64,000 bases of DNA from sequence record PV295200.1; one strand, 5' to 3'. The DNA comes from Escherichia phage vB_Eco_BCPEco_001. Below the pieces are notes generated by a model. That model saw nothing but the letters and a program-made list of their open reading frames with translations. It was not told where the DNA came from and did no database searches. Shown piece by piece: positions 28,394-64,000 of this stretch. Position 1 is the first letter of the stretch. The number at the start of each line of letters is the position of its first letter. A program made the translations under genes and the position numbers.

Positions 28394-28570
28394 ATGGCAA
28401 AACAAGCTAAAGCAAAGAAAGCAGTTGAAAAGAAAGTTGGTGATTCTAAACGCGCTGGTTACAAGCGTGGGTCTAACTCTCGTATCAATCAAACTGTTGA
28501 GAAGATCATGCGCCGAGCACGTGCGGTTCTTCGAGATGATGCTTCTCGTTTTGGTAAGCAGAAAGCATAA
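28394..28570 (+). CDS. hypothetical small basic protein
   Basis: MAKQAKAKKAVEKKVGDSKRAGYKRG...; ORF track start 28352 also possible; followed by a terminator. Confidence 0.4.
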   Translation: MAKQAKAKKAVEKKVGDSKRAGYKRGSNSRINQTVEKIMRRARAVLRDDASRFGKQKA

Positions 28571-28575
28571 GTTGA

Positions 28576-28604
28576 GGACTCCTTCGGGAGTCCTTTTTTA
28601 TTTT
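28576..28604 (+). terminator. rho-independent terminator
   Basis: GGACTCC-TTCG-GGAGTCC followed by TTTTTTATTTT. Confidence 0.7.
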
Positions 28605-28623
28605 CCAAAGATTGCACAAAGTT

Positions 28624-28656
28624 GTTTACAGTACGATTTCTTTGTGATAGTATTAT
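28624..28656 (+). promoter_or_regulatory. sigma70-type early promoter
   Basis: GTTTACA, spacer, TGATAGTATTAT; followed by GGGC-TTCG-GCCC hairpin and GAGGAAA. Confidence 0.45.
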
Positions 28657-28705
28657 CTTATACAAACAAAAGAAAAGGGCTTCGGCCCCTATTGAGGAAA
28701 ATGTT

Positions 28706-28993
28706 ATGTTTATGACTACTTATTTTGATACCCGCAAAAATTTCTGTGAAGTGGTTTTCTCAAAGGCACCTAAAGACCTTCCTGCACATTTGCAACCTAC
28801 TAGCGAATCGATTAAAAACTACGTTGATGTGGTTTGTCCTTTAGAGTTTCGTACTGTAAATGGGCGCGATACTTTAGCTATCACTAAACTCAATCGCGAA
28901 ATTGACATTGACCCTTTAATTGCGCGCGAAATTAATAGTTCTGATATTAATGGCGGTAACGTTAAATCGCACGGTTTTCAGATGAGGTTCTAA
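28706..28993 (+). CDS. hypothetical protein
   Basis: ATG 28706 after GAGGAAA; ORF track start 28622 would overlap the predicted promoter. Confidence 0.45.
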   Translation: MFMTTYFDTRKNFCEVVFSKAPKDLPAHLQPTSESIKNYVDVVCPLEFRTVNGRDTLAITKLNREIDIDPLIAREINSSDINGGNVKSHGFQMRF

Positions 28994-30677: not shown

Positions 30678-30946
30678 TGTTTGTTGTTCACACTATTTAT
30701 GAAAATGAAGGTAATACTACACGTGATTACGGTCACGTAAATCAATTTTTTAGATGCAATCCAGAATTCCGAGCTCAAAAAGACGAACGAATTTTTAAAA
30801 AATGTGTAGAGCAAGGTTTCATTTACGTCAAGCATTGGATGCAAGGAAATAAAGTTAGAACCACGTACCACAGGTCTTTGACTGAGCTTAATGATGAATT
30901 GATTTATAATAGAGCTGTAAACCAAACTCTAAAGGATGAACAATGA
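30677..30946 (+). CDS. hypothetical protein
   Basis: 89-aa ORF immediately upstream of DNA ligase. Confidence 0.5.
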   Translation: MFVVHTIYENEGNTTRDYGHVNQFFRCNPEFRAQKDERIFKKCVEQGFIYVKHWMQGNKVRTTYHRSLTELNDELIYNRAVNQTLKDEQ

Positions 30947-32406
30947 TTCTTAAAATTCTGAACGAAATAGCATCTATTGGTTCAACTAAACAGAAGCAAG
31001 CAATTCTTGAAAAGAATAAAGATAATGAATTGCTTAAACGAGTATATCGTCTGACTTATTCTCGTGGGTTGCAGTATTATATCAAGAAATGGCCTAAACC
31101 TGGTATTGCTACCCAGAGTTTTGGAATGTTGACTCTTACCGATATGCTTGACTTCATTGAATTCACATTAGCTACTCGGAAATTGACTGGAAATGCGGCA
31201 ATTGAAGAATTAACTGGATATATCACCGATGGTAAAAAAGATGATGTTGAAGTTTTGCGTCGAGTGATGATGCGAGACCTTGAATGTGGTGCTTCAGTAT
31301 CTATTGCAAACAAAGTTTGGCCAGGTTTAATTCCTGAACAACCTCAAATGCTTGCAAGTTCTTATGATGAAAAAGGCATTAATAAGAATATCAAATTTCC
31401 AGCTTTTGCCCAGTTAAAAGCTGATGGAGCTCGGTGCTTTGCCGAAGTCAGAGGTGATGAATTAGATGATGTTCGTCTTTTATCACGAGCCGGTAATGAA
31501 TATCTAGGATTAGATCTTCTTAAGGAAGAGTTAATCAAAATGACCGCTGAAGCCCGCCAGATTCATCCAGAAGGTGTGTTGATTGATGGCGAATTGGTAT
31601 ACCATGAGCAAGTTAAAAAGGAGCCAGAAGGCCTAGATTTTCTTTTTGATGCTCATCCTGAAAACAGTAAAGTTAAAGAATTCGCCGAAGTAGCTGAATC
31701 ACGTACTGCATCTAATGGAATCGCCAATAAATCTTTAAAGGGAACTATTTCAGAAAAAGAAGCACAATGCATGAAGTTTCAGGTCTGGGATTATGTCCCG
31801 TTGGTAGAAATATATGGTCTTCCAGCATTTCGTTTGAAGTATGATGTACGTTTTTCTAAACTAGAACAAATGACATCAGGCTATGATAAAGTAATTTTAA
31901 TTGAAAACCAGGTAGTAAATAACCTAGATGAAGCTAAGGTAATTTATAAAAAGTATATTGACCAAGGTCTTGAAGGTATTATTCTCAAAAATATCGATGG
32001 ATTATGGGAAAATGCTCGTTCAAAAAATCTCTATAAATTTAAAGAAGTAATTGATGTTGATTTAAAAATTGTAGGAATTTATCCTCACCGTAAAGACCCT
32101 ACTAAAGCAGGTGGATTTATTCTTGAGTCAGAGTGTGGAAAAATTAAGGTAAATGCTGGTTCAGGCTTAAAAGATAAAGCCGGTGTAAAATCACATGAAC
32201 TTGACCGTACTCGCATTATGGAAAACCAAAATTATTATATTGGAAAAATTCTAGAGTGCGAATGCAACGGTTGGTTAAAATCCGATGGCCGCACTGATTA
32301 CGTTAAATTATTTCTTCCGATTGCGATTCGTTTACGCGAAGATAAAACTAAAGCTAATACGTTCGAAGATGTATTTGGTGATTTTCATGAGGTAACTGGT
32401 TTATGA
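30943..32406 (+). CDS. 30: ATP-dependent DNA ligase
   Basis: 487 aa, same length as T4 ligase; adenylation motif region FAQLKADGARCF. Confidence 0.95.
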   Translation: MILKILNEIASIGSTKQKQAILEKNKDNELLKRVYRLTYSRGLQYYIKKWPKPGIATQSFGMLTLTDMLDFIEFTLATRKLTGNAAIEELTGYITDGKKDDVEVLRRVMMRDLECGASVSIANKVWPGLIPEQPQMLASSYDEKGINKNIKFPAFAQLKADGARCFAEVRGDELDDVRLLSRAGNEYLGLDLLKEELIKMTAEARQIHPEGVLIDGELVYHEQVKKEPEGLDFLFDAHPENSKVKEFAEVAESRTASNGIANKSLKGTISEKEAQCMKFQVWDYVPLVEIYGLPAFRLKYDVRFSKLEQMTSGYDKVILIENQVVNNLDEAKVIYKKYIDQGLEGIILKNIDGLWENARSKNLYKFKEVIDVDLKIVGIYPHRKDPTKAGGFILESECGKIKVNAGSGLKDKAGVKSHELDRTRIMENQNYYIGKILECECNGWLKSDGRTDYVKLFLPIAIRLREDKTKANTFEDVFGDFHEVTGL

Positions 32407-32591
32407 AAGCTTACTTAGAAACAATTGTCGTGGCTCAAAAAGAAGGTGGAGATGTTTCTACTTCTGTATCACAAATCATGATTGAATTTATCGATGCATA
32501 TGCTTATAATAAATTCACAGAAACTTTTGATGCTTATGAAAAAGGTCCAAAGTTTGAAATATATCGTACTCTCTTACCTATAGATTATTAA
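32403..32591 (+). CDS. hypothetical protein
   Basis: 62-aa ORF overlapping ligase stop; followed by hairpin terminator. Confidence 0.4.
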   Translation: MKAYLETIVVAQKEGGDVSTSVSQIMIEFIDAYAYNKFTETFDAYEKGPKFEIYRTLLPIDY

Positions 32592-32607
32592 AGGCCTTCG
32601 GGCCTTT
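32590..32607 (+). terminator. hairpin terminator after gene 30 operon
   Basis: AAAGGCC-TTCG-GGCCTTT followed by AATTTTA. Confidence 0.55.
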
Positions 32608-32612
32608 AATTT

Positions 32613-32620
32613 TATAAATA
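32613..32620 (+). promoter_or_regulatory. late promoter (TATAAATA) for alt
   Basis: Exact TATAAATA 20 nt upstream of alt ATG, followed by AGAGAGGA. Confidence 0.65.
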
Positions 32621-32643
32621 GAATAAACACTAGAGAGGATATG

Positions 32644-34731
32644 ATGGAACTCATTACAGAATTATTTGACGAAGATACTACTCTTCCGATTACAAACTTA
32701 AATCCAAAGAAGAAAATACCACAAATTTTTTCAGTTCATGTTGATGATGCAATTGAACAACCAGGCTTTCGTTTATGTACCTATACATCTGGAGGTGATA
32801 CTAATCGCGATTTAAAGATGGGCGATAAAATGATGCATATTGTTCCTTTTACATTAACTGCTAAAGGTTCAATTGCTAAATTGAAAGGTCTTGGTCCAAG
32901 CCCAATTAATTATATCAATTCAGTTTTTACTGTTGCAATGCAAACAATGCGTCAATATAAAATTGATGCCTGTATGCTCCGTATTCTTAAGTCTAAAACC
33001 GCTGGTCAAGCTCGACAAATTCAAGTTATTGCTGATAGACTTATCCGTAGTCGTTCAGGTGGCAGATACGTCCTTCTTAAGGAACTCTGGGATTATGATA
33101 AAAAGTATGCATATATTCTTATACATCGCAAAAATGTATCACTAGAAGACATTCCAGGAGTTCCGGAAATTAGTACTGAGCTCTTTACTAAAGTTGAATC
33201 GAAGGTCGGTGATGTTTATATCAATAAAGATACTGGAGCTCAAGTAACTAAAAATGAGGCAATTGCAGCATCTATTGCACAAGAAAATGATAAACGTTCT
33301 GACCAAGCTGTAATTGTTAAAGTTAAAATTTCACGTAGAGCAATTGCGCAAAGTCAATCGTTAGAGTCTTCTAGATTTGAAAGTGAATTATTCCAGAAGT
33401 ATGAATCTACCGCAGCTAATTTCAATAAACCTGCTACCGCTCCTTTAATTCCCGAAGCAGAAGAAATGAAGCTTGGAATTAATTCATTAGCTTCTAAAAC
33501 TAAGGCAGCAAAAATTATTGCCGAAGGAACTGCGAATGAACTTCACTATGACTATAAATTCTTTTCAAAAAGTGAGGTTGATGAAGTTTCTGAAAAAATT
33601 AAAGATGTAATTCTTAACGCAATCAAAAATGAACCAACTACTTCAATAAAATGTTTAGAGAAATACGCAGCAGCTGTTAATAAATTCTTTGAAGAATATA
33701 AAGATAATTGGCTTGATAAACATAATAAAACTCGTAAAGGGCAACCAGATGAAGTCTGGGGAGAAATAACTAAAAATGCCTGGAATGCAGCAAAAACTAA
33801 ATTCCTCAAACGAATGATTTATAGTTTTTCTGGAATTGGTGCTGGTCCAATGATTGATATTACTATTGCCCGTGATGGTTCTAAATATACTCCATCACAA
33901 AAGCGCGGCATTAGAGAATATTGTGGCTCAGGATATACAGACATTAATAATCTTCTTTTAGGTCGTTACAATCCAGAACGATATGATGTAATGAGTGAAA
34001 AAGAAATTGAATCTGCTATAAATAATTTAGATTCAGCTTTTGAAAATGGTGACCGTATACCGGAAGGCATTACAGTTTATCGTGCTCAAAGTATGACTGC
34101 TCCTATATACGAAGCACTAGTTAAAAATAAAGTGTTCTATTTCAGAAATTTTGTATCTACTTCTTTAACTCCTATCATTTTTGGACGTTTTGGAATTACA
34201 CATGCTGGTATTGGTCTTTTAGAACCAGAAGCTCGCAATGAATTAACAGTTGATAAAAATGAAGAAGGAATAACTATTAATCCAAACGAAATAAGAGCGT
34301 ATAAAGAAAATCCTGAATACGTTAAAGTTCAAATAGGATGGGCAATTGATGGAGCTCATAAAGTTAATGTTGTATATCCAGGAAGTCTCGGAATAGCAAC
34401 AGAAGCTGAAGTTATTCTACCGCGCGGATTAATGGTTAAAGTTAATAAAATAACTGATGCTTCTAATAATGACGGAACAACATCTAATAATACAAAACTC
34501 ATTCAAGCTGAAGTTATGACCACAGAAGAACTCACCGAATCGGTAATCTATGACGGAGACCATTTAATGGAAACTGGTGAATTGGTTACAATGACAGGTG
34601 ATATAGAAGATAGAGTTGACTTTGCATCATTTGTTTCATCAAATGTTAAACAGAAAGTAGAATCATCTCTTGGAATTATTGCGTCTTGCATAGATATTAC
34701 AAACATGCCTTACAAGTTCGTTCAAGGATAA
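32644..34731 (+). CDS. alt: Alt-family mono-ADP-ribosyltransferase (head-packaged, copy 1)
   Basis: MELITELFDEDTTLPITNL...; C-terminal ART triad: VYRAQ (Arg), FVSTSL (Ser-Thr-Ser), ATEAEVILPRG (Glu-x-Glu); late promoter TATAAATA upstream; ORF track start 32641. Confidence 0.85.
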   Translation: MELITELFDEDTTLPITNLNPKKKIPQIFSVHVDDAIEQPGFRLCTYTSGGDTNRDLKMGDKMMHIVPFTLTAKGSIAKLKGLGPSPINYINSVFTVAMQTMRQYKIDACMLRILKSKTAGQARQIQVIADRLIRSRSGGRYVLLKELWDYDKKYAYILIHRKNVSLEDIPGVPEISTELFTKVESKVGDVYINKDTGAQVTKNEAIAASIAQENDKRSDQAVIVKVKISRRAIAQSQSLESSRFESELFQKYESTAANFNKPATAPLIPEAEEMKLGINSLASKTKAAKIIAEGTANELHYDYKFFSKSEVDEVSEKIKDVILNAIKNEPTTSIKCLEKYAAAVNKFFEEYKDNWLDKHNKTRKGQPDEVWGEITKNAWNAAKTKFLKRMIYSFSGIGAGPMIDITIARDGSKYTPSQKRGIREYCGSGYTDINNLLLGRYNPERYDVMSEKEIESAINNLDSAFENGDRIPEGITVYRAQSMTAPIYEALVKNKVFYFRNFVSTSLTPIIFGRFGITHAGIGLLEPEARNELTVDKNEEGITINPNEIRAYKENPEYVKVQIGWAIDGAHKVNVVYPGSLGIATEAEVILPRGLMVKVNKITDASNNDGTTSNNTKLIQAEVMTTEELTESVIYDGDHLMETGELVTMTGDIEDRVDFASFVSSNVKQKVESSLGIIASCIDITNMPYKFVQG

Positions 34732-34734
34732 ATC

Positions 34735-36792
34735 ATGGAACTTATTACAGAATTATTTGACGGCGCTTCGGCGCCGGTTGTTAACTTAAATCCTAAGCAT
34801 AAAATACCACAAATTTTTGCTATCCAAACCGGCGAAGAAAGCGTGCTTCCTGGATTTAGATTTTGTACATACACCTCTGGTGGTGATACGAATAAAAACG
34901 TTAAGCCAGGCGATAAAATGATGCATATCGTAATGATAGGTGTCAACGAGAAATTATCGCTGGTTAAGCTTAGAAACTTGGGTGGAAATCCAATTGGCGT
35001 CATTAATGCTGTTTTTGATACTGCTCTTCAAACAATGAAGCAGTATAAAATCGACGCATGCTTATTCCGCGTACTAAAAAGTAAAACAAATGGCGCAGCT
35101 CGTCAAATGCAAGTTATTGCTGACCGTTTAGTACGTACTAAAGGAGCAGGTCGATATGTTCTTTTAAAGGAAATCTGGGACTATGATAAAAAGTATGCAT
35201 ATATTATGGTTTACCGTAAAAATGCCAATTTAGAAGACATTCCAGGTGTACCTCCTATTTCAACTGAGTTATTCACAAAAGTTGAATCAAAGGTCGGTGA
35301 TGTTTATGTAGATGTTAAAACAGGTGATGCTGTTCCTAAAGCTGTCGCTGTTGCTGCTTCTATTGCTTTAGAAAATGATAAGCGCACGGATCAAGCTGTT
35401 ATTCAGAAAACTAAAATTAGTCGTCGATTAGCAGCACAAGCTCAATATTCTACTGTTGATGCTTCACTTCAGGGTGATAGCTTCGCTGCTAAGAAATATC
35501 AAGAGTTTGAATCTAAAGTTCCGGTATATAAAGCAGAAGGACCAATGAACTCTGGCGTTATTCAGATTGGTTCAAACTTCAACAAAGGAGCTATCGGTGG
35601 TATGAGAAGTGCTTCTCGTTTTAAATCTAGCGATTATGAACTAGAAAACTTCCGAAATCATATTGCATTAGCCCATGCACGTTTACGTGATCCATCTATC
35701 AAGTTGCAGAGCGATATAACATATCAAGGTTCTCAAGAATATTTAAAGAATAAAGAATTCTTTGATTATAAAACTGATAAAATTTTAAGCGATCTTGCTG
35801 ACATTAATATTTCTAATAGCTTTGATGTTATTAAGAAAATTATCAATGATTTGGTTAAAGGTTCTAATGCTACGCCAGATGAAAAGACAGCTATTATTCA
35901 ATTTGTCATGAATGGCATTTATAAATTGATTAATGAATCTGCTGCTCAGGCATATGAATATGCAAGTACTGAAGTAACTCCAAAAGGACTGACTCAGGCT
36001 GAGTCTGATGTAATTGAAGATTATTGTGCAGATTCATATGTTGAAATGAACTCGTTCCTTTTGGGTAAACCAGATTCTACCCGTGAAGAATATATGGAAC
36101 GAGCTATTAAGCACATCGAGACGTTGGATTCTGCCTTTGCCAAAGGATCAGTTCTTCCTCCAGGAACTACACTTTACCGTGGACAAGAAGTTACCTTTAA
36201 AACTTTGCGTCATAACATTGAAAACAAAATGTTCTATTTCAAGAACTTCGTATCCACATCGCTTAAACCAAATATCTTCGGTGAGCATGGTAAAAACTAT
36301 ATGGCTCTAGATGATTCCGGCGCAGTATTTTCTGGTGAAGGAGAAGGTTCCGTTGATGCAGAAGATTTGATGCATATGGGTAGTCATTCTACATATGCTA
36401 ATGAAGATGCTGAAACTAGCGTGGGTATGGTAATTAAAGGAGCTGAGCGAATCAAAGTTATCGTTCCAGGTCATTTATCAGGATTTCCATCAGAAGCTGA
36501 AGTTATTCTACCGCGTGGAATTTTACTGAAGATTAATAAAGTAAGTACGTACTTTATGAAAGAAACTGCTTATAACAAGTATCTAATCGAAGGTACAATC
36601 GTTCCTCCTTCTGAACAATTAGAAGAATCAGTATATGATGGCGACCATCTAATGGAAACTGGTGAAGTTCGTCCAATGGTTGGATTTAATCAATTCCTTG
36701 TAGAAGAATCAAAAGAAGAGGAAAACGAAGTTTCTCAAATCTTGGCTTCTTTGGTTAACATCAACGGAATGTCTAAAAAGTTCAAAATGTAG
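34735..36792 (+). CDS. Alt-family mono-ADP-ribosyltransferase paralog (copy 2)
   Basis: 685 aa MELITELFDGASAPVVNL...; homologous to copy 1 throughout; ART motifs LYRGQ, FVSTSL, PSEAEVILPRG retained; divergent central region. Confidence 0.8.
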   Translation: MELITELFDGASAPVVNLNPKHKIPQIFAIQTGEESVLPGFRFCTYTSGGDTNKNVKPGDKMMHIVMIGVNEKLSLVKLRNLGGNPIGVINAVFDTALQTMKQYKIDACLFRVLKSKTNGAARQMQVIADRLVRTKGAGRYVLLKEIWDYDKKYAYIMVYRKNANLEDIPGVPPISTELFTKVESKVGDVYVDVKTGDAVPKAVAVAASIALENDKRTDQAVIQKTKISRRLAAQAQYSTVDASLQGDSFAAKKYQEFESKVPVYKAEGPMNSGVIQIGSNFNKGAIGGMRSASRFKSSDYELENFRNHIALAHARLRDPSIKLQSDITYQGSQEYLKNKEFFDYKTDKILSDLADINISNSFDVIKKIINDLVKGSNATPDEKTAIIQFVMNGIYKLINESAAQAYEYASTEVTPKGLTQAESDVIEDYCADSYVEMNSFLLGKPDSTREEYMERAIKHIETLDSAFAKGSVLPPGTTLYRGQEVTFKTLRHNIENKMFYFKNFVSTSLKPNIFGEHGKNYMALDDSGAVFSGEGEGSVDAEDLMHMGSHSTYANEDAETSVGMVIKGAERIKVIVPGHLSGFPSEAEVILPRGILLKINKVSTYFMKETAYNKYLIEGTIVPPSEQLEESVYDGDHLMETGEVRPMVGFNQFLVEESKEEENEVSQILASLVNINGMSKKFKM

Positions 36793-36847
36793 TTTACAAG
36801 TTCCTTATGTTGTGTTATAGTAGTCTTACTGACATAACATGAGGAAC
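36793..36847 (+). repeat. promoter-early stem-loop (PeSL-like) cassette, copy 2
   Basis: Same 55-bp element as 22211-22265 with 2 substitutions; right arm again supplies GAGGA for the downstream ORF. Confidence 0.6.
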
Positions 36848-36852
36848 ACAAA

Positions 36853-37143
36853 ATGAAATCTTCTTTGCGCTTTTTAGGTCAAGAACTTGTAGTTGAAGGC
36901 GTTATTCCTGCTGATAACGTTTTTAATGAAGCAGTTTACGATGAATTTATCAAAATTTTTGGAACAGATAAAAAGTTCGGAATTTTTCCTTCTGAAAATT
37001 TTTCAAAGCCAGAACAGACTGAAAGTATTTTTCAGGGTGTAGTAACAGGTAAATTTGAGTCAGAAGCTCCGGTAAAAATTGAAGTTTATATTGAAGACAG
37101 TTTAGTTGCTTCAGTTGCTGCTTTCATTTCATTCCGTAAATAA
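36853..37143 (+). CDS. hypothetical protein
   Basis: 96-aa ORF downstream of second PeSL-like cassette; GAGGA 8 nt upstream of ATG; followed by bidirectional terminator. Confidence 0.5.
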   Translation: MKSSLRFLGQELVVEGVIPADNVFNEAVYDEFIKIFGTDKKFGIFPSENFSKPEQTESIFQGVVTGKFESEAPVKIEVYIEDSLVASVAAFISFRK

Positions 37144-37149
37144 AAATAT

Positions 37150-37167
37150 GGGGACCGAAAGGTCCCC
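37150..37167. terminator. bidirectional hairpin terminator between convergent ORF 36853-37143 and gene 54
   Basis: GGGGACC-GAAA-GGTCCCC with T-rich tracts on both strands. Confidence 0.65.
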
Positions 37168-37171
37168 ATTG

Positions 37172-38137: not shown

Positions 38138-39231
38138 TAAAAAGTCCCCGCATATAAAGAAGCACGGTTTAACGTGATAATTTCTCTCATAGTAATCTCG
38201 AGAGTAAATGTACTAGGGAGGTTTGGAGCAATAGCTAATCCGTTAAAGTTACCATTAGGTGTTTTATCAAATCTGATGCTTTGTATTTGGCATGGGCCAA
38301 ATATTTCCGTTTTTCCATCAAACTTAGATGTTGCACCAAAGTTTTTCACCATCCAAATTGTCGGGTTTGAAACTACTAGAACGTTAGTTAAACTCGATGT
38401 CATTTTCTCAAATAGTGTTTTATTTTTAGCTGCGTCTTCTGGAGATAAAGGTTCAATTAACGTAGAACGATACCAATCATCTAAATACCCCTTTATTTCA
38501 GCAGCATATTGAGATTTACCCGTTTCACCATAAGAAAAATAGTTAAAATATTGATAGATATTAATAATAGCCATTAAATCTTCTGTTGAACGTGGAGTCA
38601 AATCCCATGTAAACACTTTAGTTCTATTTTCAGCACCACCATACATACTTCTGGCTGTCGTATAAATCTGTTCATTATTATCAGCCATTATACCTTGTGT
38701 TATACTTTCCAGTGCCCCAAATACTGCGGTTGAAGCAATATTACTTAGCACACCAGTAGCAGTACCTCCGCCTCTGCTGATAAGACTTTCTTGAACATCA
38801 TTAAATCTATGTGATGATGTATCAACATCAGATTTAGATCTCGGTAAAAGAATGTTTGCGACAGGAGCTTTACTTATTGTTCCTGAATTATTGTTTGATA
38901 TTAATCCATTTGATAGTTTTGATACTGTACTACTAATAGTGTTTCTTGCTGTACTTAAAATACTCGAAGATGAAGAAGAGTAGTTAGATCTCATCGATCT
39001 AAGACTTCCAGAATCCCTAGATGACATATTGTATGCAGTAAATAATAATCCATTCTTATACAGATCTGTTACCTGGAAGTCCCCTGTAGTGTCATTACCA
39101 CTAGCACGCCCAGTTGGAAACTGGGCTGTGTATGTTTTAGTTCCTACTTCTGATTTAGTACTCTGTCCGGCTGAAATTTTCTCACCGGACTTTTTAATTA
39201 AATCAGCAGTTATTTCTTTAACAATTGCCAT
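38137..39231 (-). CDS. 48: baseplate tail tube cap gp48
   Basis: 364-aa ORF, same length as T4 gp48. Confidence 0.88.
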   Translation of the reverse strand: MAIVKEITADLIKKSGEKISAGQSTKSEVGTKTYTAQFPTGRASGNDTTGDFQVTDLYKNGLLFTAYNMSSRDSGSLRSMRSNYSSSSSSILSTARNTISSTVSKLSNGLISNNNSGTISKAPVANILLPRSKSDVDTSSHRFNDVQESLISRGGGTATGVLSNIASTAVFGALESITQGIMADNNEQIYTTARSMYGGAENRTKVFTWDLTPRSTEDLMAIINIYQYFNYFSYGETGKSQYAAEIKGYLDDWYRSTLIEPLSPEDAAKNKTLFEKMTSSLTNVLVVSNPTIWMVKNFGATSKFDGKTEIFGPCQIQSIRFDKTPNGNFNGLAIAPNLPSTFTLEITMREIITLNRASLYAGTF

Positions 39232-39239
39232 ATTATTCC

Positions 39240-41012
39240 TTAATTAACTCCAGTCGCATCAAATACACCAGGAGCAGTCGTGCTCGTTACGGGTGTCATA
39301 TTATGAACGACAGTATTTTTCTTAATAACATTATTAGTATTATTGATCGAAGGAGATGCTTGTTGAACAGGAGCTTGCTGTGCTTTATTCTTTTCTATTA
39401 CCTGGACTTGTTTTGCTTCTGGTGATTTAGCAGAAGTTTCAGGTTTGGCATTAGGCTGATTTTTCTTGAGCTCTTGATAAGTAGCATCAATTTTAGAAAA
39501 TCTAGCAGCAAGTTCTTTTTTAACTGCTGGTGAATTATTTAAATCCGGGTCATCCATCCGTTTTTTAAGGTCTTCATAGGCAGATTCAACTGATTTAACT
39601 GTTGAGTCTTTACTCATATCAGCTGAATCGGCATATTTTTCAAAACGAATCATCGCGGCACGTGCTTCATTAGCCTTCATTAAAGCATTTTTTCTTTCTT
39701 CAGGTGAAAGCTGCTTTAATTTTTCTTCTTCTGCTGCACGTTCTTCGTCGGTAGTTAGTGCTTCTTTATTATCAACGCCACGAATCCAGTTAGATGCACG
39801 AGTTTTCCAATTAGCAATTTTATCTAATCCTTTTGCTATCGGACCAAGGTCTCCATTCATTCGTTTATCTTGATAATTTGCAACTTTTTCCTGGTCTTCT
39901 TTATTGAGAGATGCTCCAGTAGAATTTTGGAAATTTTCCAGCGCTCTTCCTTCTACTTCATCAGCGGTATCCTTCATACCAGGAATGACTCGAAGAATTG
40001 CAGCAGATAATTTAGCCATACCTAATTGAATAAGCTCTCCTAAATTAAAAAGAACACTTCCGAGTCCTTCTACGATAGCTGCTGTCAATCCACCCCAATC
40101 TCCCGCTTCCCAAAGTTGTTTAATTTTATCAATAGAATCAAAGATGCTCTGTAATAAAGGACCCCAAGTTCCGGTTTCGCTAGAGAATTTAGTAAAGTCA
40201 GTATTAAATAAATCCCAGGCTTTTGAAAATTTATCTGACCAATATTTAAAGTGAACCATCAGCAGATCTATTCCAACAACAACAGCCAATATCATTGCAG
40301 TCATTTTAGCGGCTTCAATAGCAGCACTGATGGTGTACTTAAATAACATGCTTGATATTTTATCACTAATTGAAATGGATTTCTTAAATCCAAAATCAAC
40401 AGTCTTTGTTAATTTATCTAAAGCTTGAGATAATTTTAAGTTAAATGCTTCTTTTTTCTGTTTTTCTTCTGGTGATTCTTGTTTGGGTTCAACTGGCTGA
40501 GGGGTAGGGAAAAAATCAGCGTCAGGATCATTATTAACTGCTTCAGGAGCTGGTAATAAAGGACCCACAGATTCAGCAGTATCATCCTCAACGACTTTAA
40601 CAGGAATAGCGCTTTCAACAGTGGCTAAACTAGTTCCAGTCTGTTGAATTCCAGCTGTCTGGATTTTTTGCTCTAATAAACTTGTTAATTTATCTAATTT
40701 GCTTCCGAGCGATTCACCGATTTCTTTATTAATATTATTGCCAATTTCGACAGTTTCAGCAATTAACTCAGAACCAGCAGTAGTATCACTCACTGCACTT
40801 TCTACATTGTCAATTGCTCCAATTATTTCATTCGATTTTTCTTCGACAGTTTGAGCTATTAATTCAGAAGCAGCTTGAGCATCATCCAATTTCGTAGATA
40901 TATCATTAAGTCCAGATAAAGTGTTAGAAGCGGATTTAGCCGCTTCCTGTGTTGGTTTATTATCTGAAATAACTTTTCTACGCATCGTTTGCATTTCTTG
41001 TGGCTTTTTCAT
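39240..41012 (-). CDS. 29: baseplate hub subunit / tail length tape measure gp29
   Basis: 590-aa ORF, same length as T4 gp29. Confidence 0.9.
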   Translation of the reverse strand: MKKPQEMQTMRRKVISDNKPTQEAAKSASNTLSGLNDISTKLDDAQAASELIAQTVEEKSNEIIGAIDNVESAVSDTTAGSELIAETVEIGNNINKEIGESLGSKLDKLTSLLEQKIQTAGIQQTGTSLATVESAIPVKVVEDDTAESVGPLLPAPEAVNNDPDADFFPTPQPVEPKQESPEEKQKKEAFNLKLSQALDKLTKTVDFGFKKSISISDKISSMLFKYTISAAIEAAKMTAMILAVVVGIDLLMVHFKYWSDKFSKAWDLFNTDFTKFSSETGTWGPLLQSIFDSIDKIKQLWEAGDWGGLTAAIVEGLGSVLFNLGELIQLGMAKLSAAILRVIPGMKDTADEVEGRALENFQNSTGASLNKEDQEKVANYQDKRMNGDLGPIAKGLDKIANWKTRASNWIRGVDNKEALTTDEERAAEEEKLKQLSPEERKNALMKANEARAAMIRFEKYADSADMSKDSTVKSVESAYEDLKKRMDDPDLNNSPAVKKELAARFSKIDATYQELKKNQPNAKPETSAKSPEAKQVQVIEKNKAQQAPVQQASPSINNTNNVIKKNTVVHNMTPVTSTTAPGVFDATGVN

Positions 41013-45441: not shown

Positions 45442-45684
45442 TTAAAAGCTTTCTTCTACTTCATCATCTGAATCTTCTAATTCAGCTCTTTTTCCTGCCA
45501 AAGCATCTCTCACAGAGATGTCATCAGTATCTTTTAATTCAGTTTCTTTGACTCTTTTCTTATAATAAGCTTCAAGTTCTTCTAAACCTTCTAATGTTTG
45601 ACAAGAGGCAATTTTACCCATAAATTCATCAATAGAAGCTTCATAAAGAAATTGTTTAAATTCTAGTAACATCTTTTTCTCCAA
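45442..45684 (-). CDS. hypothetical protein (uvsW.1 position)
   Basis: 80-aa acidic ORF immediately downstream of uvsW. Confidence 0.6.
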   Translation of the reverse strand: MEKKMLLEFKQFLYEASIDEFMGKIASCQTLEGLEELEAYYKKRVKETELKDTDDISVRDALAGKRAELEDSDDEVEESF

Positions 45685-45697
45685 AGGGCCGAAGCCC

Positions 45698-47209
45698 TTA
45701 TAAATTAACTGTTTTCATTACGTAATTAAATTTTTCATCTGCGTAGCGCTGAATACGATCAATGCCGTGTTTTAAAAGATAGTTCAAATGAACATATTTC
45801 TTTTTTGTATTAGCAGATTTTGGCTTAACACCGCAATCATCTATGAGGTCCCAGACTGTTGCTATTGTCTTAGAACCATGCTTACGTAATACACGACCGA
45901 TTGTTTGCAATACAATGATTTTTGATTTAACACCGTGCGCTAAAACAACGTGATGCAGATTTTTAACTGAAATACCAGTAGAAAATACACCATAACTAGC
46001 TACTATAATTATTCCTTTACCATTTTCAGCTAAGGTTTTCATTATATTGCGGGTTTCGGTATCAACTTCCCCTGATACGTAATAAACTTTATCGTATTCA
46101 TTTTTAATTAAATCGAAAATAGCTTTACCGTGCGATACATGTTTAAACATGACAAAAGCGTTTTCATCTTTTTGCGCAAGCTTAATAGCTAATTTAGCGA
46201 TCCATTTATTTCTTTTACTAAGCCCAGTAATAATTTTTATTTCTTCTTGGTAAGTTTTTCCCTTTAATTTAGTAGTGAACTCATCGGGATAGCGAAGAAA
46301 AATACTATTAATTTTTAGCTCAGTTACTTGTCCATCTTCCATTAATTTAGAAGTCGTTACTGGCTTAAATATTTCACCAAACATTCCAACATACTGCATG
46401 ATATTGGCTTTGCCATCACGTAATGAACCTGATAGACCAAATTTAAACATACAGTTATTTAATCCTGATATGATAGATGAAATACTTTTTCCTGTAGCAA
46501 GATGGCATTCATCATTCATCATCATTCCAAACTGTGAGAACCATTCTTTTGGTTGTTTAACTACAGTTTGCCATGTACCAACGACGACTGGTGCATCATT
46601 TTTATATTTATCATCTTTTGATGCTCCGCCACCGATTTTCTTTATCATTGCATGACTGAATAAACGATAATCAACAAAGTCATCAGCCATCTGAGTTGTC
46701 AGAGCAGTTGTTGGAACAATGATAAGAATTTTACCTTCATAATTTTCCAAATAATATCGCGCAAGCAAAGCTTGAATTAAAGATTTACCCGCAGATGTTG
46801 GAAGATTAAGAATTCTACGACGATTAACTAATCCTTCGAACACTGCATCTTTTTGATACCAGTGTGGTTCAATTCTTTTATTTCCTGAATAGATTTCTAA
46901 TTTAGAAAGCCATTCATCAAAATCTTTTCTTGATAATTCTTCTTTTTCGTTAATTTGCGGGTCAATCCAGGCTTTATAGCCAAAATTATCACAGAACTTT
47001 TTAATTTGCCCGACTAAGCCGAATGGAAGAAGACGATTATAATCTAAAAGACGGATTCGTCCATCCCAGTTGCCATATCTGAAGCGAGGATTAAACCTAT
47101 ATCCATCAGCTTCAAAGCTAAAGAAATCACGGAGTTCATGAAATGTACTTTCTTCACAATCAATTCTCACGTGACTAAAATCATAAAAATGTACTTTAAT
47201 GTCAGTCAT
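45698..47209 (-). CDS. uvsW: UvsW RNA-DNA / DNA helicase
   Basis: 503 aa; SF2 helicase motifs (Walker A PTSAGKS, DECH box NDECHLA). Confidence 0.9.
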   Translation of the reverse strand: MTDIKVHFYDFSHVRIDCEESTFHELRDFFSFEADGYRFNPRFRYGNWDGRIRLLDYNRLLPFGLVGQIKKFCDNFGYKAWIDPQINEKEELSRKDFDEWLSKLEIYSGNKRIEPHWYQKDAVFEGLVNRRRILNLPTSAGKSLIQALLARYYLENYEGKILIIVPTTALTTQMADDFVDYRLFSHAMIKKIGGGASKDDKYKNDAPVVVGTWQTVVKQPKEWFSQFGMMMNDECHLATGKSISSIISGLNNCMFKFGLSGSLRDGKANIMQYVGMFGEIFKPVTTSKLMEDGQVTELKINSIFLRYPDEFTTKLKGKTYQEEIKIITGLSKRNKWIAKLAIKLAQKDENAFVMFKHVSHGKAIFDLIKNEYDKVYYVSGEVDTETRNIMKTLAENGKGIIIVASYGVFSTGISVKNLHHVVLAHGVKSKIIVLQTIGRVLRKHGSKTIATVWDLIDDCGVKPKSANTKKKYVHLNYLLKHGIDRIQRYADEKFNYVMKTVNL

Positions 47210-49374: not shown

Positions 49375-49399
49375 AAGGGGCTTCGGCCCCTTTCTTCAT
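49375..49399 (+). terminator. rho-independent terminator after hoc
   Basis: AAGGGGC-TTCG-GCCCCTT followed by TCTTCATTTT. Confidence 0.65.
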
Positions 49400-53029: not shown

Positions 53030-53034
53030 AAAAA

Positions 53035-53052
53035 GGGAACCCGAAGGTTCCC
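53035..53052. terminator. bidirectional hairpin between convergent segD and gene 23
   Basis: GGGAACC-CGAA-GGTTCCC flanked by A/T tracts. Confidence 0.6.
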
Positions 53053-53078
53053 TAAAATTGTGTTTCTATCGTTAGAGA

Positions 53079-61072: not shown

Positions 61073-64000
<2,928 letters not shown>

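Follow-up and report, generated by a model that had tools for sequence, protein, structure and literature searches.

A C(UUCG)G hairpin with a putative role inside the 5′ coding region of the second alt paralog of a T2-like phage

The second of two tandem alt paralogs of Escherichia phage vB_Eco_BCPEco_001 carries a perfect C(UUCG)G hairpin of the T4 type within its reading frame. The hairpin stands in the sense orientation, is written with improbable codons, and is widely distributed among phages; a terminator, an initiation mask, a recoding site, and a junction between paralogs were each excluded as its identity on sequence and predicted structure. Tentatively, and at less than even confidence, we read it as a selected T4-type mRNA hairpin that may form a local roadblock early in the second paralog (copy 2), where both the selection and the roadblock mechanism are what we infer from the sequence. 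The hairpin is genuine but dispensable, its role is putative, and it is a minor curiosity. Its sequence has stood in the T4 genome record for decades, and it is an oddly placed addition to a well-known class.

The window, that is, the whole stretch of DNA analyzed, comprises 64,000 nucleotides (36% G+C) of sequence record PV295200.1. The source region is that of a T2-like Tequatrovirus, with 99.9% identity to Shigella phage vB_Shso_BCPShso_001 and 97.8% to T2. The genes and signals around the alt paralogs are as follows.

30943-32406, plus strand: gene 30 ligase
32403-32591, plus strand: alt.1
32613-32620, plus strand: TATAAATA, the T4 late-promoter consensus, 20 nt upstream of the copy 1 start
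32641-34731, plus strand: alt (copy 1), the upstream gene, cotranscribed with copy 2
34724-34728, plus strand: Shine-Dalgarno (SD) sequence AAGGA of copy 2, inside the last copy 1 codons and 6 nt upstream of the AUG
34735-36792, plus strand: full-length Alt-like ADP-ribosyltransferase paralog (copy 2), with its ATG at 34735
36853-37143, plus strand: alt.-3
37148-37169: terminator hairpin 3′ of alt.-3
3′ of alt.-3, minus strand: genes 54, 48, and 29

Copy 2, whose start was set by homology (MELITELF), is named alt.-2 in the RB32 and RB51 records. The TAA stop codon of copy 1 occupies 34729-34731 and the duplication junction 34732-34734, and copy 2 begins 3 nt after the alt stop. In T4, copy 2 has decayed: alt.-1 and alt.-2 correspond to copy 2 nt 1-348 fused to its last 20 nt, and the T4 annotation and PMC1524935 describe these open reading frames (ORFs) as a partial alt duplication. 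No T4 late-promoter motif was found between 34025 and the copy 2 AUG, and copy 2 is therefore read from the copy 1 transcript. Because the two genes share a transcript and copy 2, though equipped with an SD, lacks a separate promoter, any differential control of copy 2 must be post-transcriptional.

A preliminary description of this DNA had reported a 6-bp G/C hairpin with a UUCG loop in codons 9 to 14 of copy 2; its sequence and coordinates proved exact.

34761-34776, plus strand: perfect hairpin CGGCGC-UUCG-GCGCCG, with a C(UUCG)G tetraloop and a 6-bp all-G/C stem, from sequence and folding
34761-34766 and 34771-34776, plus strand: arms of the hairpin, with the loop at 34767-34770

The hairpin covers nt +27 to +42 of copy 2, namely, the last base of codon 9 (GAC) and codons 10 to 14 (GGC GCT TCG GCG CCG, encoding G A S A P). 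It was the predicted minimum free energy and centroid structure in all contexts folded. In a 28-nt context it folds at -12.8 kcal/mol (z = -2.46), a stability that none of about 169 same-size windows of the copy 2 gene matched. When the 64-kb window was scanned for perfect 6-bp stems with loops of 3 to 8 nt, this was the sole such stem made of G/C alone. A stem of at least 6 bp accompanies 6 of the 32 CUUCGG motifs on both strands of the window, this hairpin among them, and the other long-stem C(UUCG)G hairpins are listed here.

28575-28594, plus strand
32587-32610, plus strand: 10-bp C(UUCG)G hairpin, intergenic, 3′ of alt.1, the nearest canonical example
49375-49392, plus strand
45684-45699, minus strand
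53034-53053, minus strand

The KAW1E185 record annotates a terminator at the position equivalent to 32587-32610, and compact hairpins of comparable stability in the window are overwhelmingly intergenic. The TTCG loop at 34767-34770 is flanked by C and G on the plus strand, the one on which the alt genes are encoded. The likeness to the intergenic hairpins of the window that had been drawn earlier holds, as they are of the same C(UUCG)G type, on the sense strand. An apparent excess of in-ORF hairpins near ORF starts was distrusted, since longest-ORF calls may swallow upstream intergenic terminators.

The choice of codons was evaluated with a synonymous-encoding test of the peptide DGASAP under the codon usage of this genome. 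The peptide forces four of the six pairs, because its Gly/Pro and Ala/Ala codons are mutually complementary; the remaining two pairs and the loop are set by wobble choices with rare codons. Given DGASAP, the probability is 0.126 for six Watson-Crick pairs, 0.026 for a UUCG loop, and 5.7e-4 for an all-G/C stem. The rare codons in the hairpin are GGC (0.15), TCG (0.05), GCG (0.08), and CCG (0.15). An encoding at least as stable as the native one has a probability of 0.0013; with only 0.13% of synonymous encodings equally stable, the structure is therefore a nucleotide-level feature, and the hairpin is nucleotide-first rather than peptide-first.

Alt N termini from about 15 Straboviridae genera have one common layout of motif, linker, and motif. 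A conserved (Q)LNE-VF-D/E motif, which we take to be the capsid-targeting and gp21-cleavage region, is followed by a variable linker of 4 to 15 residues and a conserved P-V-x-N-L-x-P-K-x-K-x-P-Q motif. Across genera, no other N-terminal part of Alt varies as much as this linker, which holds residues of any kind. The linkers of the two paralogs are as follows.

34762-34773, plus strand: copy 2 linker GGC GCT TCG GCG (G10 A11 S12 A13), between MELITELFD and PVxNLxPK
32671-32686, plus strand: weak 5-bp hairpin GAAGA-UACUAC-UCUUC in the equivalent copy 1 linker, -3.8 kcal/mol

From copy 1 to copy 2, the 15 nt GAA GAT ACT ACT CTT (EDTTL) become the 12 nt GGC GCT TCG GCG (GASA), and the stem is completed by the preexisting C of GAC and by the CCG Pro codon. 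Copy 1 had been described as lacking such a structure; it has no comparable hairpin, but its linker does form the weak 5-bp stem listed above, which is nonsignificant (P_syn of ~0.1). Within codons 1 to 30 of the paralogs, 19 of 21 codons for shared residues are identical, and about half are farther downstream. Codons 1 to 9 and codons 15 to 30 match almost completely between the copies, so the hairpin forms an island rather than a boundary.

Phages with a single, chimeric alt lack the hairpin. In PST, alt follows copy 1 to about nt 300-305 and is copy-2-like thereafter; in KAW1E185, it follows copy 1 to about nt 1800 and then has the copy 2 tail. The hairpin is therefore dispensable, and T4 retains it in a dead gene remnant. 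A past recombination junction at the hairpin, proposed in the preliminary description, was rejected: both flanks are near-identical, the similarity of copy 1 to copy 2 does not change across the site, and the mapped crossovers lie elsewhere, at about nt 300 (PST) and nt 1800 (KAW1E185).

A 40-nt query centered on the hairpin matched 487 phage records, of which at most about 26 have an internal mismatch to it. The UUCG loop is in the sense orientation in 483 of the 487, and the same 16-mer is present in T4 itself, in the alt.-1 remnant (L012:3072-3087). A flipped-loop query, for which exactly 90% identity corresponds to the standard 40-mer with four loop mismatches, returned 429 records at 90 to 95% identity, 55 with at least one extra difference, and 3 exact matches. 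The 16-mer was identical in each of the IMG/VR and metagenome relatives retrieved, as was the hairpin in all loci (5 metagenome and 4 IMG/VR) found by flank-anchored pattern scans. Relatives encoding the same peptide with varied codons, a case raised in advance as one that would speak against the hairpin, were absent: the stem was unaltered in all sequences inspected, with the element present in 487 records, and the hairpin variants seen were loop changes only.

ESh16 and L003/L051: change beyond the hairpin, in the 3′ flank
sb1: loop TTCG to TTCA, synonymous
REP2, REP3, and CT01: loop TTCG to CGAA, its exact reverse complement, changing Ser to Glu with the arms intact

REP2 and CT01 are 96.3% identical over 2 kb and are mutually no closer than either is to the window; the loop flip may have arisen once or twice. 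Among 14 distinct sequences, 0 of 12 stem positions vary, versus about 0.9 expected from the surrounding conserved block, which spans about -130 to +70 and is flanked by mosaic sequence. These 14 sequences speak neither for nor against stem-specific purifying selection, the stem being no more strongly conserved than the -130 to +70 block, and conservation by itself therefore proves nothing. No description of this hairpin was found in the literature.

The linker was also examined in other alt lineages, with 25 genes initially and then 73 unique alt genes. Relatives were gathered by subgroup alignments, a broad 18-sequence alignment being too diverse, and the tested segment began one codon ahead of the conserved D and extended two codons beyond the conserved P. 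In L006-8 (ADSEML), a structure exactly over the linker (-11.4 kcal/mol) ranks first, or close to first, in local stability. The same ranking applies to the linker structures of phiR1-RT and Kc304 (SDSEKNY), F48 (SDSDKNY), L060, L082, L068, and the Entb45 group. These stems differ in sequence, and several lie in alt genes present as one copy, an indication that any role is connected with the alt 5′ coding region. Among the same 73 genes, no linker structure was found in the EGKERL, EDKLDL, KSDKKNY, and TEGNNY lineages or in the copies of Aeromonas phage AhFM11. Clustering at 90% identity yields 30 clusters, 8 of them no higher than the 5th percentile (P of ~8e-5); with 75% single-linkage clustering, this holds for only 1 of 15, and the enrichment vanishes. 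Recurrence of linker hairpins across alt lineages is thus patchy, and it is suggestive rather than established. A broader proposal, which we consider doubtful, is that an mRNA hairpin following the targeting and cleavage motif is a recurrent, selected regulatory feature of Straboviridae alt genes; it would set the translation pace or mRNA lifetime of a packaged, injected effector, each lineage would build it anew with other codons, and its most extreme form would be the C(UUCG)G hairpin of Tequatrovirus copy 2.

Several known systems were compared with the hairpin. Structure in the 5′ coding region reportedly affects bacterial translation mainly by occluding the SD or AUG, as Kudla et al. in 2009 and Goodman et al. 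in 2013 are said to have found. The copy 2 hairpin is similar in occupying the first ~40 nt of the ORF, but it is self-contained, and the predicted accessibility of the SD and AUG is the same with or without the stem. By partition function, the unpaired probability of the SD is 0.49 in the native sequence versus 0.43 to 0.55 in four hairpin-free or altered variants, and that of the AUG is 0.65 versus 0.66 to 0.74 in hairpin-free recodings. An initiation mask was rejected on these grounds. The earlier suggestion that the hairpin throttles translation thus finds no support at the level of initiation; a putative early-elongation effect is what remains of it.

Promoter-early stem-loop (PeSL) cassettes of RB49-type phages, reportedly described by Arbiol et al. 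in 2010, resemble this element in that a stem-loop is directly followed by a sigma-70-like match. Here, TTGTTA-16-TAAAAT at 34778-34805 directly follows the hairpin and matches at 9/12 positions, but such matches are at chance level in the window (16 found versus 18.7 expected), and the element lies inside a gene rather than at a module boundary; a PeSL-like combination of hairpin and promoter was rejected.

Like Rho-independent terminators, the element lies 3′ of a stop codon and is a stem-loop rich in G+C whose size and stability are typical of that class. It differs from them in lying within a translated region and in having no U-tract: the tail 3′ of the stem is GTTGTTAA (RNA, GUUGUUAA), with 4 T (U) in 8. 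It was not called by the consensus scan that found the terminator hairpin 3′ of alt.-3, and an intrinsic terminator was rejected. Searches of the literature found no T4 or T2 Term-seq or RNA 3′-end maps and no transcript or ribosome data. Rfam 15 covariance models applied to 34500-35000 gave a single hit, to a snoRNA on the other strand and at chance level (E = 9.9).

The closest likeness is to the C(UUCG)G hairpins that, according to PMC4371310, were first described in T4 mRNA (Tuerk et al. 1988). Loop, closing pair, G+C-rich stem, sense strand, and T4-type genome are shared; the canonical examples in the window are intergenic, whereas the copy 2 hairpin, which has no U-tract, lies 26 nt inside a confidently called ORF and encodes G-A-S-A-P. 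In T4 gene 60 (PMC5462505), the take-off hairpin likewise lies within coding sequence and has a short C-G stem capped by UUCG. Gene 60, however, has a stop beside the take-off codon, a coding gap, and a matched landing codon; the copy 2 hairpin has none of these, and its frame is continuous. A recoding site was rejected because the reading frame is intact, with homology to Alt proteins on both sides and no stop in or beside the stem.

With initiation masking and termination excluded, a local roadblock is the remaining mechanism. A C(UUCG)G hairpin would have been written in frame into the tolerant linker of the copy 2 N terminus and would act in cis: some 25 nt into the gene, it would form a small roadblock that is self-contained. 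It could delay the first ribosome translocations, with a pause some 4 to 6 codons in, or the passage of an RNase, and the output or stability of copy 2 might thereby be trimmed relative to the cotranscribed alt. We favor a selected, cis-acting hairpin because its codons are improbable, its canonical C(UUCG)G signature is on the sense strand, and hairpins recur in other alt genes. If functional, it would be a compact, natural T4-style "designed" hairpin, set in frame and fixing the relative output of adjacent cotranscribed paralogs, with the GASAP peptide as a by-product of RNA selection. It would also be an easy test bed, thanks to the tractability of T2 and T4 and a naturally occurring loop-flip allele.

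Some observations weigh on the other side. A 6-bp stem is a small barrier for an elongating ribosome, which counts against a roadblock. On the same side stand the absence of the hairpin from copy 1, PST, KAW1E185, and many alt lineages, its retention in the dead T4 remnant, the viability of phages that carry the UUCG-to-CGAA flip, a stem invariance not above background, the unchanged predicted accessibility of the SD and AUG, and the loss of the cross-lineage enrichment when clusters are coarse.

Nearly as likely as the roadblock is that the hairpin is a tolerated relic that does nothing at present. In this reading, a short palindrome was either captured from an intergenic hairpin or made, or brought to perfection, by inverted-repeat template switching, and it persists because the junction block as a whole is young or conserved. 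Inverted-repeat template switching homogenizes arms and inverts spacers, as outlined in PMC8604942, and the spacer inversion with intact arms in REP2, REP3, and CT01 is its diagnostic multinucleotide change. By that signature, the exact loop inversion shows template switching acting on the palindrome. Such a process accounts for the variation of the hairpin and possibly for the perfection of its arms, but not for a function. A linker that accepts almost any residues at lengths of 4 to 15 across genera, a stem conserved to the same degree as its surroundings, and the dispensability of a hairpin that T4 keeps in a pseudogene remnant all agree with a relic. Template switching copies an arm only, however, and the 5′ arm and loop (GAC GGC GCT TCG) would still need rare codons, at an estimated ~1e-3; moreover, 483 of 487 records have precisely the extra-stable UUCG as their loop, read in the sense direction, and independent hairpins occur at the same place in other alt lineages. 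If not functional, the hairpin is a clean case of template switching writing or rewriting short palindromes inside phage genes, and with or without a function it alters nothing fundamental in T4 biology.

Three further readings compete less well with a roadblock. It is unlikely that the hairpin serves the alt message instead, as a protective 3′-end structure that blocks 3′-to-5′ exonucleases or as a weak attenuator that ends some transcripts and leaves alt in excess of copy 2; on that account it would sit 30 nt past the alt stop, inside copy 2, because there is no intercistronic space. The hairpins that end neighboring genes are of the same type (32587-32610 after alt.1 and 37148-37169 after alt.-3), the start 30 nt past the alt stop is estimated to be clear of a terminating ribosome, and in T4, with copy 2 dead, the hairpin is effectively in the alt 3′ untranslated region. 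Yet it is not terminator-like, with a tail of 4 U in 8 and no call by the scan, and it would be melted by ribosomes as they translate copy 2. Copy 2 itself has no hairpin after it, nor does the single alt of PST or KAW1E185, and the tandem alt arrays of KIT01 have none at their 3-nt junctions. The strongest analogous hairpins, furthermore, are in single-copy alt genes, where the upstream gene has its own terminator. Still less probable is a DNA-level recombination feature: either a scar left where the duplication was joined, or a heterology or hotspot that influences how the tandem paralogs exchange sequence. The paralogs do recombine, as PST, KAW1E185, and T4 are chimeras of copies 1 and 2 or deletions; the hairpin breaks an otherwise near-identical 90-nt tract common to both copies, and the block around it is conserved with mosaic sequence outside. 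Against this, the flanks are equally similar between the copies with no boundary, the duplication junction is at 34732-34734 and not at +27, and the crossovers at about nt 300 and nt 1800 are away from the hairpin. A recoding signal, whether a gene-60-like bypass or a programmed frameshift stimulated by the hairpin, has the coding-region C-G stem with a UUCG loop at the T4 gene 60 take-off site (PMC5462505) as its precedent and is effectively refuted: the ORF is open with Alt homology in one frame on both sides, no stop codon lies in or beside the stem, no slippery heptamer stands at a suitable spacing, and by inspection the only GGC-to-GGC hop meets a stop.

The hairpin in the 5′ coding region of copy 2, the Alt-like paralog that follows alt (copy 1), occurs with other loops among relatives, whose retrieved loci (L-numbers) carry their own coordinates. 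In three phages (REP2, REP3, and CT01), the hairpin reads CGGCGC-CGAA-GCGCCG, in which the 4-nt loop is the exact reverse complement of the window's TTCG, the stem is unbroken, and the peptide changes from GASAP to GAEAP. Shigella phage sb1, with a copy 2 open reading frame (ORF) shortened to 534 nt, has the loop TTCA, a synonymous change from TCG to TCA that also leaves the stem unbroken.

Loop variants of the copy 2 hairpin
L052:2613-2628, CGAA loop, REP2 (OQ174501.1)
L055:1013-1028, CGAA loop, CT01 (OK018184.1)
OQ174502.1, CGAA loop, REP3
L054:1013-1028, TTCA loop, sb1 (PQ666539.1)

The CGAA flip is a textbook spacer inversion via inverted-repeat template switching. Because REP2 and CT01 share just 96.3% identity across 2 kb, the flip may have had more than one origin or may have been spread by recombination.

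The final ~130 nt of copy 1 and the initial ~70 nt of copy 2 form a block that is tightly conserved among relatives, whereas the 3′ portion of copy 1 lying more than ~140 nt before the copy 2 start codon is hypervariable, with mosaic alleles (window positions 34600-34800 versus ~34485-34600). Directly 3′ of the hairpin, the T4 reference (NC_000866.4, L012:3090-3095) reads GTTACATTA (Thr-Leu), and other T4 records (H164, H167, and H207) and all relatives read GTTAACTTA (Asn-Leu); the discrepancy among T4 records comes either from variation between strains or from an early sequencing mistake.

In several unrelated alt lineages, single-copy genes included, the most stable local RNA structure lies exactly on the variable linker that follows the conserved D codon, and is made from differing sequences, with statistical support that varies with the way in which lineages are clustered. 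Many other alt lineages have no comparable linker structure.

Alt genes with linker structure
L006-L008, L030, L033, L042, L056-L062, L068, L082, and others; approximately the first 60 nt of each ORF

Single alt genes in Tequatrovirus are chimeras of copies 1 and 2, and the tandem paralogs seem often to undergo unequal exchange.

Rearranged alt genes
L013:3009-5069, PST single alt; chimera with crossover at ~nt 305, in the QTM(K/R)QYKIDAC codons
L014:3009-5066, KAW1E185 single alt; chimera with crossover at ~nt 1800
L012:3046-3431, T4 alt.-1/alt.-2; copy 2 with internal ~nt 349-2038 deleted

Tandem amplification of alt is recurrent across genera: Escherichia phage KIT01 (Dhakavirus) has three tandem paralogs spaced by only 3 nt each (L031:910-6699), and two are present in each of 44RR2.8t and AhFM11. 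One alt N terminus (MRFLTRDSEML..., L009:2983) seems to be frameshifted, and one copy 2 (L011:3001-5123) is broken into two ORFs, one of 392 codons and one of 315; these are either faults of assembly or copies in decay.

Promoter-like motifs also lie within copy 1 and just after copy 2.

Promoter-like motifs
36793-36821 (+), strong sigma-70-like match TTTACA-17-TATAGT with extended TG; directly after the copy 2 stop, upstream of alt.-3
34017-34024 (+), late-promoter consensus TATAAATA; within copy 1, with copy 2 starting 710 nt downstream

The sigma-70-like match, kept in PST and KAW1E185, is probably a real early promoter. The late-promoter match could be due to chance or could be an internal late promoter that also feeds copy 2.

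Further fairly stable sense-strand hairpins lie 39 to 105 nt into well-supported ORFs. The seeming concentration of in-ORF hairpins close to 5′ ends may partly be an artifact of longest-ORF gene calls.

In-ORF hairpins
36892-36927 (+), alt.-3
40926-40947 (−), gene 29
39108-39126 (−), gene 48
63323-63345 (−), ORF 62892-63386

Two C(UUCG)G hairpins 100 nt apart (28575-28594 and 28677-28688, plus strand) fall within a doubtful 59-codon ORF (28536-28715), in a stretch that is probably noncoding.
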